A stretch of 64,000 nt of DNA from Planctomycetales bacterium. Lineage in GTDB: Bacteria > Omnitrophota > Gorgyraeia > Zapsychrales > Zapsychraceae. Under the pieces are notes generated by a model that saw only the letters and a program-made list of their open reading frames with translations, was not told the DNA's origin and made no database searches. This document shows positions 3,116-26,474 of this stretch, piece after piece (position 1 is the stretch's first letter; the number at the start of each line of letters is the position of its first letter). The stretch spans positions 13,627-77,626 of the forward strand of contig SBBO01000020.1 in NCBI GenBank assembly GCA_005239675.1, read 5' to 3'. The position numbers and the translations under genes were made by a program.

Positions 3116-4428
3116 TGGACTTGCAGAATCAGCGTGTAACGATTTTAGGGGCTAAACTGAGCGGCATGGCGATGGCACGCCTGGTGACTCGTCGGGGCGG
3201 TCAAGCAAAGATTTCCGAGAGGATGACTGAGGATTCTGTACCGGCAGATTTCCGGCAATGGGCCCAACAGCAGCGGGTGGCGTGCCAGTTCCAAGGACAC
3301 ACACGCCCTTTTATTGAAGCCAGCGACTGGCTTGTGCTTAGCCCTGGTGTCCCTAAAGACATCCCGGCCGTTCATTGGGCCCAGGCGGATAATATTCCTG
3401 TCTTGGGCGAGATTGAATTTGCATTTCAATGGTGTGATAAACCCGTTATTGCGGTCACCGGCAGTAACGGCAAGACGACGGTGGCGACGCTCATTCATCA
3501 GGTCCTGGAGGCTGCCGGATATCGTTCGTGCTTATGCGGGAATATCGGCACACCCTTTTCCGATTATGTCTTGGATTTGTTTGATAAAGATTTCGTCGTC
3601 CTGGAAGTCAGTTCATTTCAATTAGAAACTATCCTTAGCCAGACCATGCTGCTAGGGAAGGGTGCTGGCATCAAGGGATTTAAACCTTACATCGCCGTCA
3701 TCCTTAACGTTAGCCAAAATCATCTGGACCGTCACAAAGATTTTCAGGAATATCTTGATGCCAAGAAAATGATTTTTATTAACCAAAAGGAGGGTGATTA
3801 CGCAGTTTTAAACGCCAAAGATGATCATTTGAAGCGGTTGGCCCAGGGGGTAAAATCCCAGGTGCGATATTTTGATCCCTCTTTGATGCCTCTAAAGGGC
3901 ATAGAGAGTAATCCTAACTTTGCGGCTGTTTGGGAGATTGCAAAAATCATCGGCATCAAAGAAGCAACCGTAAGTCAGGTGTTGCGGGATTTTAAAGGAG
4001 TTGAACATCGCCTAGAATGGGTGCGTCAAATCAATGGTGTTCATTTTATCAATGACTCGAAGGCAACGACCGCCCAGGCCGCTATCTGGGCGCTCGAACG
4101 GCTAAATGCCCCCGTTATCATGATCTGCGGGGGTCGTGATAAAAATATCGATTTCTCTGCCGCAGCGTCTCTTGTTCGTCAGAAAGTGAAGCGCATGCTT
4201 CTCATTGGCGAGGCCAGAAAGAAGCTCAGAGAGGTATTCAATGGACTGGTAACCATGGAAGAATGCGCCAGCCTTCCTGAGGCGGTCGCGCGGGCCAACG
4301 AGATCGCCCAAGCAGGGGATAGCGTTTTGTTGAGCCCCATGTGCGCCAGTTTCGACATGTTTGCCAATTACCAAGAGAGGGGACGTTGCTTTAAGGAGGC
4401 CGTCCATCATTTGTCCGACTATGCGTGA
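3115..4428 (+). CDS. murD: UDP-MurNAc-L-Ala--D-Glu ligase MurD
   Basis: The start ATG overlaps the mraY stop (TGATG). The motif GSNGKTT and the Mur-ligase C-terminal domain are present. The ORF track started the call at an upstream in-frame codon (3058). Confidence 0.85.
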   Translation: MDLQNQRVTILGAKLSGMAMARLVTRRGGQAKISERMTEDSVPADFRQWAQQQRVACQFQGHTRPFIEASDWLVLSPGVPKDIPAVHWAQADNIPVLGEIEFAFQWCDKPVIAVTGSNGKTTVATLIHQVLEAAGYRSCLCGNIGTPFSDYVLDLFDKDFVVLEVSSFQLETILSQTMLLGKGAGIKGFKPYIAVILNVSQNHLDRHKDFQEYLDAKKMIFINQKEGDYAVLNAKDDHLKRLAQGVKSQVRYFDPSLMPLKGIESNPNFAAVWEIAKIIGIKEATVSQVLRDFKGVEHRLEWVRQINGVHFINDSKATTAQAAIWALERLNAPVIMICGGRDKNIDFSAAASLVRQKVKRMLLIGEARKKLREVFNGLVTMEECASLPEAVARANEIAQAGDSVLLSPMCASFDMFANYQERGRCFKEAVHHLSDYA

Positions 4429-21052: not shown

Positions 21053-22516
21053 ATGGACGAGGAAAAGTTAATGGGTGACGTTACTGGTTTTATCAAATAC
21101 AGCAGAGAAGATCTTCACAAACAGTCCATTGTAGAGCGTCTCAAACATTGGAAGGAATTTTATGAGCCAATGCCCGAGGAGAATTTAAGAAATCAGGGCG
21201 CTCGATGCATGGATTGCGGCGTCCCCTTTTGCCAGGAAGGCTGTCCCATCGGCAATATTATCCCCGATTGGAACGATCTAGTCTTTCGTGATCGCTGGCG
21301 GGAGGCGATTGACCGTCTGCACAAGACCAACAATTTTCCTGAGTTTACCGGCCGTATTTGTCCGGCGCCCTGTGAGAATTCCTGCGTCTTGGGGATTAAC
21401 GCCCCGCCGGTTACGATAAAAAATATTGAAGTCTCCATTATTGAGAAGGCCTATCAAGAAGGGTGGGTTGAGCCTCAGCCACCCAAACAGAGGACGAGAA
21501 AGACTGTTGCCGTTATAGGCTCTGGCCCAGCAGGACTGGCCTGCGCTGATCAGTTGAATAAATTGGGTCACCGCGTGACTGTTTACGAAAAAAACGAGGT
21601 TTGTGGTGGATTACTCGTCTTAGGGATTCCGGATTTTAAATTAGAGAAGTGGGTTGTCGAGCGGCGCCTGAAGCGCATGGAGGCTGAAGGTGTTGTCTTC
21701 AAGACCAAGGTCCATGTTGGCGTGGATATTTCCGCCAAAGAGTTGCGCGCAAAATTTGATTCCATTGTCCTGTGCGGCGGGGCTGAAAGCCCCAGAGACT
21801 TGCCTGTTGAAGGAAGAGATCTTCAAGGGGTTTATTTTGCCATGGATTATTTGACTCAGCAAAATCGGATTAATAATGGCCACAAGGTTTCTCCTGGGGC
21901 TTGGGTGACAGCTAAAGGCAAAAAAGTCATTGTCCTGGGAGGCGGTGATACGGGCTCAGATTGCATCGGCACGGCTAATCGGCAGGGGGCCTTCTCGGTG
22001 GTGAATTTCGAGTTGTTGCCACGCCCACCCAAGGAACGTAGCCAAGATAACCCGTGGCCGAACTGGGCCTTGATCGAGAGGACCTCCACCTCCCATGAGG
22101 AGGGTGTCCAGCGTGATTACGCGATCATGACCAAGAAATTGACTGGAGAAAATGGCCAATTAAAGAAACTACATGCGGTGCGCTTGGCCTTTGGTCCCAA
22201 GGATCCTGTGACGGGACGTAGTCCCATGCAAGAAATCGCTGGTTCACAATTTGAACTAGAGGTCGATTTATTGCTTCTGGCCTTGGGCTTTCTGGGACCG
22301 GTTAAGAATGGAATGATTGAAGAACTGGGTGTGGAATTGGATCACCGCGGGAATGTGAAGGCAGATAAGAATAAGATGACAAGTATCCCGGGAATTTTTA
22401 CCGCGGGCGACATGACCCGTGGGCAATCGCTTGTCGTTTGGGCTATCCACGAGGGCCGCGCCGCTGCGCAAGGCACGCATAACTATTTGATGAAATCTGT
22501 TGTAAGTTGTTCCTAG
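21053..22516 (+). CDS. gltD: glutamate synthase small subunit (NADPH-dependent, FAD/Fe-S)
   Basis: Cys cluster CPIGNIIPDWN...CPAPCENSC, a Rossmann motif VAVIGSGPAGLA, and a second one VIVLGGGDTGSDC. The ATG at 21071 has a better RBS (GAGGAAAAG). Confidence 0.9.
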   Translation: MDEEKLMGDVTGFIKYSREDLHKQSIVERLKHWKEFYEPMPEENLRNQGARCMDCGVPFCQEGCPIGNIIPDWNDLVFRDRWREAIDRLHKTNNFPEFTGRICPAPCENSCVLGINAPPVTIKNIEVSIIEKAYQEGWVEPQPPKQRTRKTVAVIGSGPAGLACADQLNKLGHRVTVYEKNEVCGGLLVLGIPDFKLEKWVVERRLKRMEAEGVVFKTKVHVGVDISAKELRAKFDSIVLCGGAESPRDLPVEGRDLQGVYFAMDYLTQQNRINNGHKVSPGAWVTAKGKKVIVLGGGDTGSDCIGTANRQGAFSVVNFELLPRPPKERSQDNPWPNWALIERTSTSHEEGVQRDYAIMTKKLTGENGQLKKLHAVRLAFGPKDPVTGRSPMQEIAGSQFELEVDLLLLALGFLGPVKNGMIEELGVELDHRGNVKADKNKMTSIPGIFTAGDMTRGQSLVVWAIHEGRAAAQGTHNYLMKSVVSCS

Positions 22517-22781
22517 CTCTTCGTTTTATCATGCTAAGAAAGATGGAATTTGTAGAAAAAGTTGGTGAAGGGTCTTTTTATAATACGGTCGACGATGCCT
22601 TGGAATTTGCACGCAAATTTGTTTCATAATATCATTTATCAGTGCCTTAACTGGCCCCCAAAATTTTGGGAGAATCCTGCTTGCCTTGACTCTTTTCACT
22701 GGAATTTACGTCTTGTAACAAAGTCTTAAAAAACGTCAAAACCGACTTCCCGCCATTCTTTTTTTATTTCTTTTTCCGGTA

Positions 22782-23456
22782 GTGCTCTTTCAAGGATGTT
22801 CGTTTTTATATATTGGACGGGTTCCTTACGATCAAAAATCTTTTGAGCAGATCCGGCCTCAGGCCCGATTCAGAATTCTATTTTTGGGAGATAGCACGGC
22901 GGTCGGGACCGGATCAGGGGATGGCCGCACTTCGGTTGCAGGATGGTTTGCGCAAGACTTTCCTGCGGCCCACATTATCAACCGTGCGCAGAATGGTTAT
23001 CGTTTGAAGGATATCTTGAAACAACTCGAGAAGGAGCAGTTTGACCACTATAATCTCGTTGTGATTCAAGCCGGAGCTAATGACATATTGCGCTTTACCT
23101 CTTTAAGATCAATTCAATGTAGCTTGGAAGAAATTATTAAGAGAGCAGAGAAAATTGGTGATGATGTGGTTGTGTTGCATTCCGGGGATATAGGAACAGC
23201 GCCAATATTCTGGTGGCCTCTCAAATGGTTTTATTCTTTGAAGACAAAAGCGGTCAGAAAAATTTATCTCGAGGCGGAAAAAAATACGGAAATCCACTAT
23301 GTTGATCTTTATGGCACAAAAGTGGATGAAATTTTTTTAGATAATAAGAAAAAATATTATTCCGATGATTATCTTCATCTAACTGGAGAAGGCTACCGGG
23401 CTTGGTATCAAGCGATTCGTGATGAGTTAAAAGAGGCAGGGGCGCTGGAGAATTAG
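22782..23456 (+). CDS. SGNH/GDSL-family hydrolase
   Basis: Block I ILFLGDSTAVG, a GAND block (IQAGANDI), and a C-terminal DDYLHLT (Asp/His of the triad). Confidence 0.7.
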   Translation: MLFQGCSFLYIGRVPYDQKSFEQIRPQARFRILFLGDSTAVGTGSGDGRTSVAGWFAQDFPAAHIINRAQNGYRLKDILKQLEKEQFDHYNLVVIQAGANDILRFTSLRSIQCSLEEIIKRAEKIGDDVVVLHSGDIGTAPIFWWPLKWFYSLKTKAVRKIYLEAEKNTEIHYVDLYGTKVDEIFLDNKKKYYSDDYLHLTGEGYRAWYQAIRDELKEAGALEN

Positions 23457-23535
23457 TAAAAAAGGTTCCCATGCCAAGTGTCATTGTTCCAATTTATAAT
23501 AAATAAATTATTCCTTCAAAGAACAAGTAGAAAAC

Positions 23536-23721
23536 ATGGAAATAAGATCCATTATCCGATGTCCTCACTGTGGTTTTGAAAAAGAAGAAGCCATGCCCAT
23601 GGCTTCCTGCCAATTTTTCTATCAATGCACTCAATGTGGAGAAAGGTTGAGACCGAAAGAAGGGGATTGTTGTGTGTTTTGTTCTTACGGCACAGTCAAA
23701 TGTCCTTCAAAACAGCATTGA
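23536..23721 (+). CDS. small Cys-rich zinc-ribbon protein with a GDCCVxC motif (GDCCVxC-domain (seleno)protein-like; all-Cys form)
   Basis: 61 aa: CPHCG...CQFFYQCTQCG...GDCCVFCSYGTVKC, eleven Cys in all. There is no in-frame TGA. Confidence 0.55.
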   Translation: MEIRSIIRCPHCGFEKEEAMPMASCQFFYQCTQCGERLRPKEGDCCVFCSYGTVKCPSKQH

Positions 23722-23828
23722 ATATAGATGTATAGGCAAAATGAGTGGTTGCTAATAAACAGGAGCCAATGTATTCTTTAGTTGAAATTTGACAGGGTTC
23801 ATAAAGATTTGACCTCTGGTTGCTTCGA

Positions 23829-23875
23829 TATCCAACGATCTCCAACAAGAACAGGCTGTGAGACGTTGGATTTTT
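23829..23875 (+). terminator. terminator-like hairpin
   Basis: ATCCAACG...CGTTGGAT is a perfect 8-bp stem with a long loop, followed by TTTTTT. It sits about 110 nt downstream of the small Cys-rich ORF. Confidence 0.45.
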
Positions 23876-23986
23876 TGACGCTTGATGACTTATTGTAACT
23901 CTCGAGAATTTTGCTCATAACCGCCTGACGTCTTTTGCTAACTTTTATCTTGGCTTTTCCTCGGTTCTTTGTTAATCTGTGTACTG

Positions 23987-24056
23987 CAGGCAGATGGTTC
24001 CTCCTTTGTTTTAGGGTTTGGTCACCTTTATTTTAGGAGAACCCTGCCTGTTTTTT
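23987..24056 (+). terminator. intrinsic-terminator-like long imperfect hairpin followed by T6
   Basis: CAGGCAG at 23987-23993 pairs with CTGCCTG at 24044-24050. The inner pairing GGTTCcTCC / GGAGAACC extends the stem, and TTTTTT follows directly. Confidence 0.5.
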
Positions 24057-24120
24057 ATCTAATTTCAACTAAAATTAGCATTCAATCGGCAAGAGCAAAT
24101 AAAAGACGTTAAAATTAAAA

Positions 24121-24300
24121 ATTGGGAGTCGGCAGCGCGATGAAATGGCATCGGCTATTTTATCTGGCGAATAGCCCTCCCTCGTTGGCGACCACAGGGT
24201 TCAACTCCCCACCGTTCTGTCTTAAGGAAACTGCTTTTCAGGAAAGCAGTCTTGCAGGTGAAAAACCTCCGCTGCGATTCTGAGGTTTCCTTAAGACAGG
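24121..24300 (+). promoter_or_regulatory. highly structured element directly upstream of the SPFH gene, with nested inverted repeats and alternative pairings
   Basis: A 15-bp inverted repeat CTGTCTTAAGGAAAC (24217-24231) / GTTTCCTTAAGACAG (24285-24299) encloses two hairpins (CTGCTTT-ucagg-AAAGCAG and AAACCTC-12nt-GAGGTTT). Upstream, GGGAGT (24124-24129) can pair either with CTCCC (24176-24180) or with ACTCCC (24203-24208). The block ends 22 nt before the SPFH start codon. Confidence 0.4.
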
Positions 24301-24321
24301 ACATATTTTAAGTAGGACACA

Positions 24322-25047
24322 ATGTCAATATTTATCATTATTATCGGTATTATCGTCGGCTGGATTGGAATACTTTATTTGATTTCCAAGTATTTCACAA
24401 CAATTTTCGAATTTGAAAGGGGCCTAAAGTATCGTAAGGGCAAATTTGTTGAGATTTTGGGGCCAGGCCGTTATTGGATATTCTCGCGAAGTACAACGAT
24501 AAGTAAAATTGATGTCCGGCCGAAAGTCATTTCTGTTCCCGGCCAAGAGGTTTTAAGCGCTGATAGCGTGACTCTAAAGGTCAGTGTTACGGCAAAATAT
24601 GAAATTATTGATCCGAATTTGGCTGTTAACAAGATCGAGAATTATATAGAGGCGTTCTACGCGACTGTTCAACTGGCACTTCGTGATATTATCGGATCGT
24701 TAAAAATTGATGAAATTTTAGAACAGCGACCCACTTTGAATCAAAAACTCATGGAGATAACATCAAAGAGTGTCGGGGAATTAGGAATAAAAATTCACTT
24801 GATCGGGGTTAAGGACATCATGTTTCCTGGAGAATTGAAGAAAATATTTGCGAAAGTTGTGGAAGCACAAAAAGAAGGACTGGCCGCATTAGAGCGAGCT
24901 CGGGGTGAAACTGCATCACTAAGAAGCTTAGCCAATGTCGCTAAAATGCTGGATGACAATCCCGCCTTAATGCAATTAAGGGCATTACAGTCTCCAGGGA
25001 ATACTGTCGTTCTTGGGGTTCCCGGCTCTGTTAAGAAGGAAGATTAA
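24322..25047 (+). CDS. SPFH/band-7 (stomatin/prohibitin-like) membrane protein
   Basis: An N-terminal TM helix followed by an SPFH domain. AGGA RBS. No NfeD partner is adjacent. Confidence 0.75.
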   Translation: MSIFIIIIGIIVGWIGILYLISKYFTTIFEFERGLKYRKGKFVEILGPGRYWIFSRSTTISKIDVRPKVISVPGQEVLSADSVTLKVSVTAKYEIIDPNLAVNKIENYIEAFYATVQLALRDIIGSLKIDEILEQRPTLNQKLMEITSKSVGELGIKIHLIGVKDIMFPGELKKIFAKVVEAQKEGLAALERARGETASLRSLANVAKMLDDNPALMQLRALQSPGNTVVLGVPGSVKKED

Positions 25048-25121
25048 TGGAACAAGATAAGAAAAAAGTCTACCTCCAGACCTGGCAAGACCACACAATT
25101 CTCAAAGGACGCAAATCATAA

Positions 25122-26474
25122 ATGATTGATATCCAATACGATAAAAAGAGGGTGTTTGTTGAGACCTACGGCTGTCAAATGAATGTCTACGATACCGAAT
25201 TGGTACGTTCCATTCTGCTAAAGGCAGGCTATAGCTTTGTTGCCAAGGAACAGGAAGCGGATATTGCGCTTTTGAACACCTGTGCTATCCGAGAGCATGC
25301 GCATCAGAAAGTCTACAACCGCATCCATGAGATCAGGCGTTGTCATCAGGGCAAGTCGGTTGTGATCGGGGTCTTGGGTTGTATGGCGACCAATTTACGC
25401 ACCGACCTCTTGGAGAACCGTAGGCTCAACATTGATTTTATTGCTGGACCAGATTCGTATAAGAGGCTCCCTGAGTTGATTGCTCAATGCGTAAACGACG
25501 AGAAACAATGGACAGGAGATAAGCGGCGTAAGGCCTACGATGTGAGGCTTTCAGAATTTGAGACGTACGCGGACGTTTATCCTGAGCGTCCTGGGGGTGT
25601 CAACGCATGGTTAGCCGTCATGCGTGGGTGCAACAATTTTTGTACGTTTTGCGTGGTGCCCTACACGCGCGGCCGTGAGCGCAGCCGTGCACCGGAGAAT
25701 GTGGTTGCCGAGGTCAGGCGCCTGGGTCAAGAAGGATTTAAGCAGGTAACCCTTTTAGGCCAGAACGTCAATAGTTACTATTATCAAGGGCATGATTTCG
25801 CTGATCTGATCGAGGAGGTGAGCAGGGTAGAGACAATCGAACGCATCCGGTTTACATCCCCGCACCCCAAGGATTTCCCGGAAAAACTCTTGAATGTCAT
25901 TGCTCGTCATCCGAAGATCTGCAAGCACATCCATCTACCTGTGCAATCCGGCAGCAATCGCATCCTTGAACGAATGGGGCGCACCTACACGCGCGAGGAT
26001 TTTCTGGAGCTGGTTGCTAAAATCCAGCGTATCATCCCGGGTGTTGCGCTCTCAACAGATGTCATTGTCGGCTTCTGCGCAGAAACCGACGCAGACTTTG
26101 AGGACACATTGAGTCTGATGCGGGAGGTAGAATTCGATTCCGCATTTACCTTTAAATATTCCCAGCGTAAAGGCACGATAGCCTCCCGTCAATACAAAGA
26201 CGACGTGTTCGAGGCCATTAAGACCGAACGTATCGTCTCTTTAAACGCACTGCAGAAAGAGATTTCCTTAAAGAAAAACCGTGCGTATATTAGCCATTGT
26301 CACGAAATTCTCATTGAAAACAAAGGCAACAAGCATTCGCCGGATATCCTTTATGGCCGTACCGATGACAACAAGCTGGTGACGTTGGCTAGTGGTAATC
26401 ATGGTCTGGGCGAATTCGTGAAGGTACGTATAGTGGATGTCTCAGCTAACGTCTTGAAAGGGGTTGCAATTTAG
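25122..26474 (+). CDS. miaB: tRNA-2-methylthio-N6-dimethylallyladenosine synthase MiaB (radical SAM methylthiotransferase)
   Basis: An MTTase N-terminal Cys triad (YGCQMN...NTCAIRE...GCMA), a radical-SAM CNNFCTFC motif, and a TRAM C-terminus. Confidence 0.9.
   Translation: MIDIQYDKKRVFVETYGCQMNVYDTELVRSILLKAGYSFVAKEQEADIALLNTCAIREHAHQKVYNRIHEIRRCHQGKSVVIGVLGCMATNLRTDLLENRRLNIDFIAGPDSYKRLPELIAQCVNDEKQWTGDKRRKAYDVRLSEFETYADVYPERPGGVNAWLAVMRGCNNFCTFCVVPYTRGRERSRAPENVVAEVRRLGQEGFKQVTLLGQNVNSYYYQGHDFADLIEEVSRVETIERIRFTSPHPKDFPEKLLNVIARHPKICKHIHLPVQSGSNRILERMGRTYTREDFLELVAKIQRIIPGVALSTDVIVGFCAETDADFEDTLSLMREVEFDSAFTFKYSQRKGTIASRQYKDDVFEAIKTERIVSLNALQKEISLKKNRAYISHCHEILIENKGNKHSPDILYGRTDDNKLVTLASGNHGLGEFVKVRIVDVSANVLKGVAI

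Follow-up and report, generated by a model that had tools for sequence, protein, structure and literature searches.

Among described leader RNAs, those closest to the element reported here are the T-box leaders, the thrS operator of Escherichia coli, and leaders devoted to a single gene family. Our element lies upstream of a slipin gene in a 64,000-nucleotide (nt) stretch of contig SBBO01000020.1, which is referred to as the window. The T-boxes, especially the translational ileS T-boxes of Actinobacteria, are 5' leaders of hairpins in series, as is the slipin leader; both have T-loop modules, an AUC triplet (an Ile codon) in an apical loop, and a helix adjacent to the Shine-Dalgarno (SD) sequence that could act as sequestrator or anti-sequestrator. 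The thrS operator resembles it in placing a mimic of a tRNA arm immediately upstream of a single gene's SD, an arrangement in which a bound factor and the 30S subunit could compete sterically. In thrS the mimicked arm is that of the anticodon, and what binds the leader is the tRNA-binding enzyme that the gene itself encodes. The glmS ribozyme and the yjdF motif are large structured leaders that accompany almost solely a single gene family in many lineages, which holds for the slipin leader as well. Finally, YrlA and other tRNA-like noncoding RNAs (ncRNAs) share with it a canonical T-arm, GGGUUCRAnUCCC, with conserved equivalents of U54 and A58.

Bacterial stomatin/slipin proteins are very widespread, and their physiological role and regulation are poorly understood. 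The slipin of the window is an ordinary stomatin homolog. It matches PF01145 at 1e-28, and the solved structures most like it are those of PH stomatin (3BK6) and human stomatin. Its homologs are named slipin family protein, and the slipins of Omnitrophota among them mark the genome as Candidatus Omnitrophota-like. The region directly upstream is almost certainly a conserved structured leader RNA of this gene. A first-pass annotation, made from the letters of the window, had proposed a cis-acting structured leader upstream of the SPFH gene, and the conservation and covariation found in relatives decisively bear it out. The features of the leader and its surroundings, all on the + strand, are as follows.

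24086-24115, +: promoter-like site TCGGCA, 18-nt spacer, TAAAAT, which places the transcription start at ~24122, where base pairing of the RNA begins
24124-24302, +: slipin leader RNA
24124-24181, +: P1, a long hairpin with bulges, each helix segment of which covaries
24186-24194, +: small variable linker hairpin UGG-CGA-CCA, drawn from the alignments, with a conserved leading UGG
24197-24209, +: tRNA-type T-arm GGG-UUCAACU-CCC, GGGUUCAACUCCC, a member of the family consensus
24214-24302, +: 3' domain, a single long irregular hairpin (P4-P7) supported by covariation
24214-24231 / 24285-24302, +: P4
24238-24243 / 24278-24283, +: P5
24246-24250 / 24271-24275, +: P6
24254-24259 / 24265-24269, +: P7
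24303-24324, +: single-stranded spacer with the SD-like AGGA (24314-24317) and the slipin ATG (24322)
24322-25047, +: gene of the slipin, a stomatin-type SPFH/Band 7 membrane protein

Conservation and covariation of the leader

The leader is ~179 nt long, begins at the start given by the predicted promoter, and stops 19 nt before the slipin ATG, a distance that the first-pass annotation had put at 22 nt. Across the family the length is ~190 nt. The + strand folds with a free energy of -81.8 kcal/mol (z score -6.1 against shuffled sequences), and the - strand with -68.3 kcal/mol. By blastn, 13 Omnitrophota loci carry the leader directly upstream of slipin at 72-86% identity, and other phyla give short matches. 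Fourteen Omnitrophota sequences, aligned with MAFFT and folded with RNAalifold, gave 55 base pairs, 31 of which show compensatory double changes.

The first covariance model was built from this alignment and found the leader upstream of slipin in further groups: Elusimicrobia, Bacteroidota, Planctomycetota, Chloroflexota, Gemmatimonadota, Acidobacteriota, Nitrospirota, Nitrospinota, Actinomycetota, Cyanobacteria, Myxococcota, Desulfobacterota, Verrucomicrobiota, Clostridia, Dormibacterota, Auribacterota, and Patescibacteria. The leader is present in ~18 phyla, at 97 loci besides the window. Two cultured organisms carry it, Anaeromyxobacter oryzisoli SG63 (locus L047) and Ornatilinea apprima P3M-1 (L074). 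A second-generation model recovered the leader in 98 of 100 sources, and the two sources without a match lack a normal slipin 5' end to search: the slipin match starts at base 2 of the locus in L080 and covers protein residues 103-237 only in L055.

In the alignment of these 98 sequences, 92.2% of the pair cells are canonical and 52 of the 55 pairs have changed on both sides, counts that are somewhat inflated as the alignment is model-fitted, which is to be set against the leader reading. The covariation score is 0.714, compared with 0.235 for shuffled alignments and 0.08-0.14 when the pairing partners are slid by 1-3 columns. The 14-sequence MAFFT/RNAalifold result is independent of the model, is unaffected by this inflation, and points in the same direction. 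G-U pairs, which exist on the + strand only, are abundant among the leader pairs. Hence the leader is an RNA structure rather than a DNA palindrome, and the protein-binding palindrome array that had been offered as an alternative is discarded. Nor is the region a leader peptide or small open reading frame (ORF): several frames are open by chance, relatives differ by insertions or deletions of 1, 2, 4, and 5 nt, and the changes in helices are compensatory. We conclude that the leader RNA is a new, uncatalogued, and very widespread family, which is strongly supported.

Anatomy of the leader

The leader is built of hairpins in series without a closing helix. P1 consists of a GGGAG/CUCCC base, GGC/GCC and CGC/GCG segments, and an upper stem of 10-11 bp. 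Its apical loop is AUCG (24150-24153). The AUC of this loop is kept across phyla: 61 of the 98 sequences have AUC as the whole loop, and ~82 of the 98 have a loop that contains it. The T-arm has the 7-nt UUCRAnn loop and the U54-A58 pair of a tRNA T-arm, and the hairpin is indistinguishable from one. Loops matching UUCRAnn occur in 66 of the 98 sequences, the stem pairs are 94% paired, and the positions equivalent to U54 and A58 are co-conserved, being U and A in 71 sequences.

The 3' domain carries both-side changes in all 18 pairs of P4 and in 15 of the 16 pairs of P5-P7, with 89-98% of cells paired. Its tip is near-invariant, UGCAGGUGAAAAACCUCCGC, with the family form UGCRGGu...aCCYCCGC, and the most conserved columns of the family are 24249-24272. 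The tip at 24251-24272 (YUGCRGGuu..aCCYCCGC) resembles the 3' end of 16S rRNA (...CCUGCGGUUGGAUCACCUCCUUA), including the anti-SD ACCUCC. In the leader this ACCUCC pairs with GCAGGU, which is SD-like, and so P7 has the look of an SD:anti-SD helix built into the RNA. The P7 tip is kept even in a Bacteroidetes member (L065); SD sequences are little used in Bacteroidetes.

Two variations on this architecture were found. Many members outside Omnitrophota have an extra small hairpin between P4 and P5, for example GCGGAAACGC. In several Acidobacteriota and one Patescibacteria member, P1 is followed at once by the T-arm (YUGGUUCGAYUCCAR) and then by the second hairpin, the order opposite to that of the window (L022, L023, L028, L032, L037, L039, L041, and L069); the covariance model misaligns this variant.

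The first-pass annotation had drawn the 3' part of the leader differently. The inverted repeat that it described as 15 bp and perfect is present, and measures 18 nt with 94% complementarity; it is P4. Of the two hairpins that it placed inside this repeat, the first (24230-24250) is 87% paired with a few double changes, in Omnitrophota only. The second, GCAG/CUGC, lacks covariation and is broken in 3-5 of the 14 relatives, and both the minimum-free-energy fold and covariation give a continuous P5-P6-P7 hairpin in its place. These two hairpins belonged to a proposed attenuator or riboswitch platform, in which GGGAGU (24124-24129) toggles between the CUCCC tracts at 24177-24181 and 24205-24209 as mutually exclusive helices. 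Both pairings are indeed possible in the sequence of the window, but P1 reads GUGA/UCAC or GCGAGCG/CGCUCGC in relatives, where the second tract, the 3' strand of the T-arm, stays T-stem CCCC. Only the first pairing therefore covaries, and the toggle is refuted. Taken with the broken GCAG/CUGC hairpin and the lack of a U-tract after P4 in 75 of 84 loci, this leaves such a platform highly improbable. A search for long-range pseudoknots by mutual information returned only helix extensions, register shifts, and the U-A pair of the T-loop.

Exclusive linkage to slipin

At the genome loci, the covariance model finds the leader ahead of slipin essentially wherever upstream sequence is available. Since these loci had been fetched by way of the protein, the reverse scan was run from the RNA alone. 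A pattern reaching from the T-loop to the tip was scanned over metagenome contigs and gave 120 loci, 66 of which the covariance model confirms; the matches it rejected are chance matches. Among the 66, 58 have a slipin ORF downstream, one has a truncated slipin, four are too short, and three are weak (below 23 bits). Where a strong match (at least 20 bits) has room downstream, slipin is the next gene in 59 of 59 cases, the truncated one included. In the truncated case (L197, 446-637) the leader is full, but similarity to slipin ends after ~40 N-terminal residues, so that the locus is either a pseudogene or an assembly chimera. Six pattern matches fell in viral contigs; the model confirms none of the six, which are chance matches, and phage carriage was set aside.

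Slipin is the only gene consistently linked to the leader RNA. We sought conservation of the gene before the leader and of the gene after slipin, and found no cluster larger than two among the immediate upstream and downstream ORFs, which also disposes of a conserved operon partner such as NfeD. As the neighbors are not conserved, the leader and slipin form a self-contained two-part module in varying genomic contexts. A link to anti-phage defence was likewise rejected, with no PADLOC match for slipin or for the cysteine-rich mini-protein encoded upstream. In one Omnitrophota locus (L038, 2441-3608), four tRNA genes stand immediately upstream of the slipin leader. Together with the canonical T-arm of the leader, these neighbors invite the idea of a tRNA-derived origin.

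The strictness of this linkage bears on a rival explanation, in which the leader is a functional partner of the slipin protein, a stable and possibly processed tRNA-like ncRNA that would act alongside the slipin oligomer or be delivered with it, in place of regulating the gene or in addition to doing so, and whose upstream position would only ensure co-expression. The RNA and slipin are the sole conserved pair in ~18 phyla, their association is essentially 100% in both directions, the serial hairpins with conserved loops are like those of protein-binding ncRNAs, and the T-arm cannot be told from that of a tRNA. However, no terminator or U-tract separates the RNA from the gene in 75 of 84 loci, and the very tight spacing from RNA to SD is expected for translational control and needless for mere co-expression. 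Slipins, moreover, are not known to bind RNA, which counts against such a partnership. On balance we regard the partner ncRNA as unlikely.

Expression signals around the leader

In the window, the TAAAAT of the promoter-like site lies at 24110-24115. In 50 of 84 loci a TAnnnT box occurs no more than 20 nt ahead of P1, compared with 16 of 84 in a control window, with a peak at -11 to -13. This position puts the predicted transcription start at the first pairs of P1, so that 24124-24302, beginning at that start, would be the complete 5' untranslated region (UTR) of the slipin mRNA.

On the other side of the leader, the distance from P4 to the start codon has a median of ~19-20 nt in 96 loci and is mostly 13-34 nt; it is 19 nt in the window. 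Of 84 loci, 76 have an SD-like motif. Two loci, L015 (~3830-4000) and L024 (~3862-3980), carry a palindromic repeat-like insert of ~100-160 nt between leader and SD, which breaks the otherwise tight ~19-nt spacing. P4 was rejected as an intrinsic terminator, since just 9 of 84 loci have a U-tract after it. The 3' strand of P4, which is rich in pyrimidines, can form a duplex with the SD region that is more stable than expected from shuffled sequences (-10.7 compared with -8.9 kcal/mol; Wilcoxon p = 1.7e-6), and the best such duplex overlaps the SD in 74 of 76 loci.

The start of P1 at the predicted transcription start would also suit a constitutive, non-sensing 5' structure that protects the mRNA from 5'-end-dependent decay, sets the translation rate, or both, and such a role agrees with the finding that no alternative fold has covariation support across phyla. 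Stabilizing 5' hairpins, however, need neither ~190 nt nor a T-loop, an invariant 20-nt tip, or conservation over ~18 phyla, and the degree to which the loop sequences are conserved implies specific recognition. We consider a purely constitutive element improbable, a little more so than the partner ncRNA.

Proposed function of the leader

We favor, with some reserve, the reading that the leader controls initiation of slipin translation in cis. The AUC loop, the 'elbow' of the T-loop, the internal loop between P6 and P7, and the tip would together form a recognition surface for some factor. We would expect a macromolecule in this role sooner than a small metabolite. A row of hairpins that no helix closes, with conserved loops, points to a macromolecular partner or to a tertiary fold with multiple contact points, and away from a classical junction aptamer. 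As the T-arm and the base of P4 adjoin the ribosome-binding site, two routes of action can be envisaged. In the first, the bound factor would sterically block or permit 30S binding, as at the thrS operator. In the second, P4 would be stabilized or opened, and its 3' strand accordingly barred from or freed for sequestration of the SD. We hold either specific route with less confidence than cis translational control in general.

A further step is to see in the leader a new class of sensing element for slipin genes of ~18 phyla, that is, a riboswitch or an operator sensing tRNA, ribosome, or protein, with a mimic of the tRNA elbow beside the ribosome-binding site. We put this forward tentatively, with slightly less confidence than cis control itself. 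As in riboswitches generally, a structured domain of the 5' UTR is conserved and covaries; for ligand binding the leader is a candidate.

Several points weigh against these readings. The start of transcription is a prediction, and any regulation, like its direction and its signal, is inferred. Serial hairpins without a closing helix are atypical of small-molecule aptamers, and the strict linkage to one gene fits an RNA working with the slipin protein equally well. No alternative conformation of the leader has covariation support across phyla, and the a:a' hairpin is weakly supported and confined to Omnitrophota. In AT-rich members, the window among them (-5.6 kcal/mol), the 3' strand of P4 forms a weak duplex with the SD, and the purine-rich 5' strand of P4 could account for the complementarity of P4 to the SD without any switch.

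Comparison with known RNAs

The covariance scan against Rfam that the first-pass annotation had called for returned no family match for the leader. With Rfam 15 at E <= 1, the region 22500-25500 of the window has one match, to Ref64 in the spacer upstream of the leader, and nothing on 24124-24302. At the gathering score, the whole window gives two tRNAs elsewhere, and 20 other leader loci give tRNAs only. ARAGORN finds no tRNA or tmRNA in the region. Full-text literature searches returned no description of a slipin-linked leader RNA and no relevant paper on GDCCVxC proteins, supplementary tables and subscription-only papers lying outside the scope of that search.

In its mode of action the leader would stand nearest to T-box or tRNA-mimic leaders, or to the single-gene kind represented by glmS and yjdF, and it differs from each of them. 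It is not a T-box riboswitch, as it lacks the T-box sequence and precedes the wrong genes. Neither the 14-nt T-box sequence nor the UGGN antiterminator bulge was identified in it; RF00230 gives no match at E <= 1 in the window or at the gathering score in the 20 loci; there is no conserved single-stranded UGGN, and the UGG of the linker is in a stem in many members. The gene it precedes encodes a membrane scaffold instead of an aminoacyl-tRNA synthetase or a protein of amino-acid biosynthesis or transport. Its AUC sits in a triloop, unable to present a full codon, and its T-loop belongs to a complete tRNA-like T-arm, not to an interdigitated distal platform. Unlike the thrS operator, the slipin leader mimics a T-arm, and the product of its gene is a membrane protein without known RNA binding. 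With the glmS ribozyme and the yjdF motif it shares no sequence or structure similarity and no Rfam match, and it has no known ligand or catalytic activity. In contrast to YrlA, it has no helices like those of the acceptor or D-arm, is not beside rsr, and matches neither YrlA nor tRNA in Rfam. The leader is not a tRNA either, since it has no cloverleaf, its consensus structure contains no acceptor or D helices, and ARAGORN and Rfam give no tRNA match.

The spacer and the GDCCVxC mini-protein gene

The leader is separated from the next gene upstream by a spacer. The first-pass annotation had joined this gene, the spacer, and the leader into one island of low coding density, and the three are unlinked in any relative. 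It had also singled out the ~600 nt at 23722-24321 as the longest non-coding stretch of the window, which probably holds: no plausible gene lies there, and the other large ORF-free gaps are coding. The features concerned are as follows.

23471-23500, just upstream of the mini-protein ORF: sigma-70-like promoter-like site ATGCCA-18-TATAAT
23536-23721, +: gene of a GDCCVxC Cys-rich mini-protein of 61 amino acids (aa) with 9 Cys
23722-24123: spacer
23777-23792 / 24058-24073: long-range inverted repeat, 15/16 complementary, extended by 23743-23756 / 24074-24087 and bracketing T1 and T2
23830-23876, +: T1, terminator-like hairpin, -20.8 kcal/mol, z -3.65
23986-24056, +: T2, terminator-like imperfect hairpin of ~17 bp followed by U6, -29.0 kcal/mol, z -4.4

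The spacer is AT-rich, with a G+C content of 37% compared with 49% for the window. T1 has an 8-bp outer stem, ATCCAACG/CGTTGGAT, followed by inner pairs and U6. Both hairpins lie within 1 nt of the positions assigned to them earlier (23829-23875, and 23987-24056 for a hairpin described as ~16 bp). They have stable stems and a U6 tract, and their long loops or interiors fall outside a simple scan for consensus terminators; in T1 it is the long loop that left the hairpin unmatched. Parts of the spacer outside T1 and T2 fold no better than shuffled sequences (z +0.4 and +1.3). The Ref64 match mentioned above, to an Enterococcus small RNA (sRNA), covers 23989-24053 of T2 below threshold (27.3 bits, gathering score 44.3, E 0.023), and most likely reflects merely a generic long terminator hairpin.

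The simplest reading of the spacer is a pair of tandem terminators of the GDCCVxC transcript, insulating the slipin promoter. The alternative to such a plain 3' UTR is the remnant of a non-autonomous element of the MITE (miniature inverted-repeat transposable element) kind, or an sRNA gene ending at 24056. In its favor are the inverted repeat with its extensions, which would arise by chance in an AT-rich stretch in ~1-2% of cases (a rough estimate and not a tool result), the low G+C content, and the absence of the spacer from all relatives; in L002, one of the closest slipin loci, ~45 nt separate the upstream gene from the RNA. The same strain has a second, independent assembly (L001), which starts at window position 24083, beside the right arm of the repeat. 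The repeat and this assembly break may mark the footprint of an inserted element, a hint only, from a single copy. Against it, the spacer has no second copy in the 64 kb window and no similarity to any of 208 fetched loci, no target-site duplication was noticed on reading the sequence, a search for promoter-like sites inside the spacer found none, and the stretches beside T1 and T2 show no excess stability. We judge an element remnant or sRNA gene rather unlikely. A repeat or gene remnant in the wider sense was also rejected on the missing copies and similar loci, the six-frame translations being uninformative.

The mini-protein is a member of an already catalogued family and is unrelated to the downstream RNA. 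The 61-aa ORF exists as annotated, and its assignment to the GDCCVxC family holds, with 98.4 bits against NF041374 (cut-off 40); its cysteines number 9, where 11 had been counted. Residues 5-60 match positions 1-56 of the 58 in the NF041374 profile, an end-to-end match to the GDCCVxC (seleno)protein of NCBIfam, from which the copy of the window differs in being all-Cys. Pfam gives no match for it. There are 209 homologs at E <= 1e-5, the closest of which, from Omnitrophota, are 79-80% identical; the exact sequence is not on record. Close homologs are the last gene of DsrE / DsbD-thioredoxin / thioredoxin-like operons (L202, 1-4186; L203, 1875-4192), a terminal place that fits a thiol- or metal-handling role. 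A pyridine-nucleotide disulfide oxidoreductase is encoded near the operon in L203. Whereas these relatives close such operons, the copy of the window is an orphan downstream of an SGNH hydrolase gene. Linkage of GDCCVxC to slipin was rejected: in all relatives the mini-protein gene is away from slipin, and DNA similarity is confined to the coding sequence.

Implications

The slipin leader adds a high-quality orphan family of structured RNA, with an alignment and a covariance model ready for use, and it is unusual among mRNA leaders in containing a canonical tRNA T-arm. It also offers a direct experimental handle on slipin, for which the two cultured carriers named above are at hand. That so large and conserved an RNA is exclusive to slipin implies that slipin is expressed under a specific and ancient signal. 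If the leader is indeed a sensing element, knowing its ligand would show which physiological signal bacterial slipins answer to.

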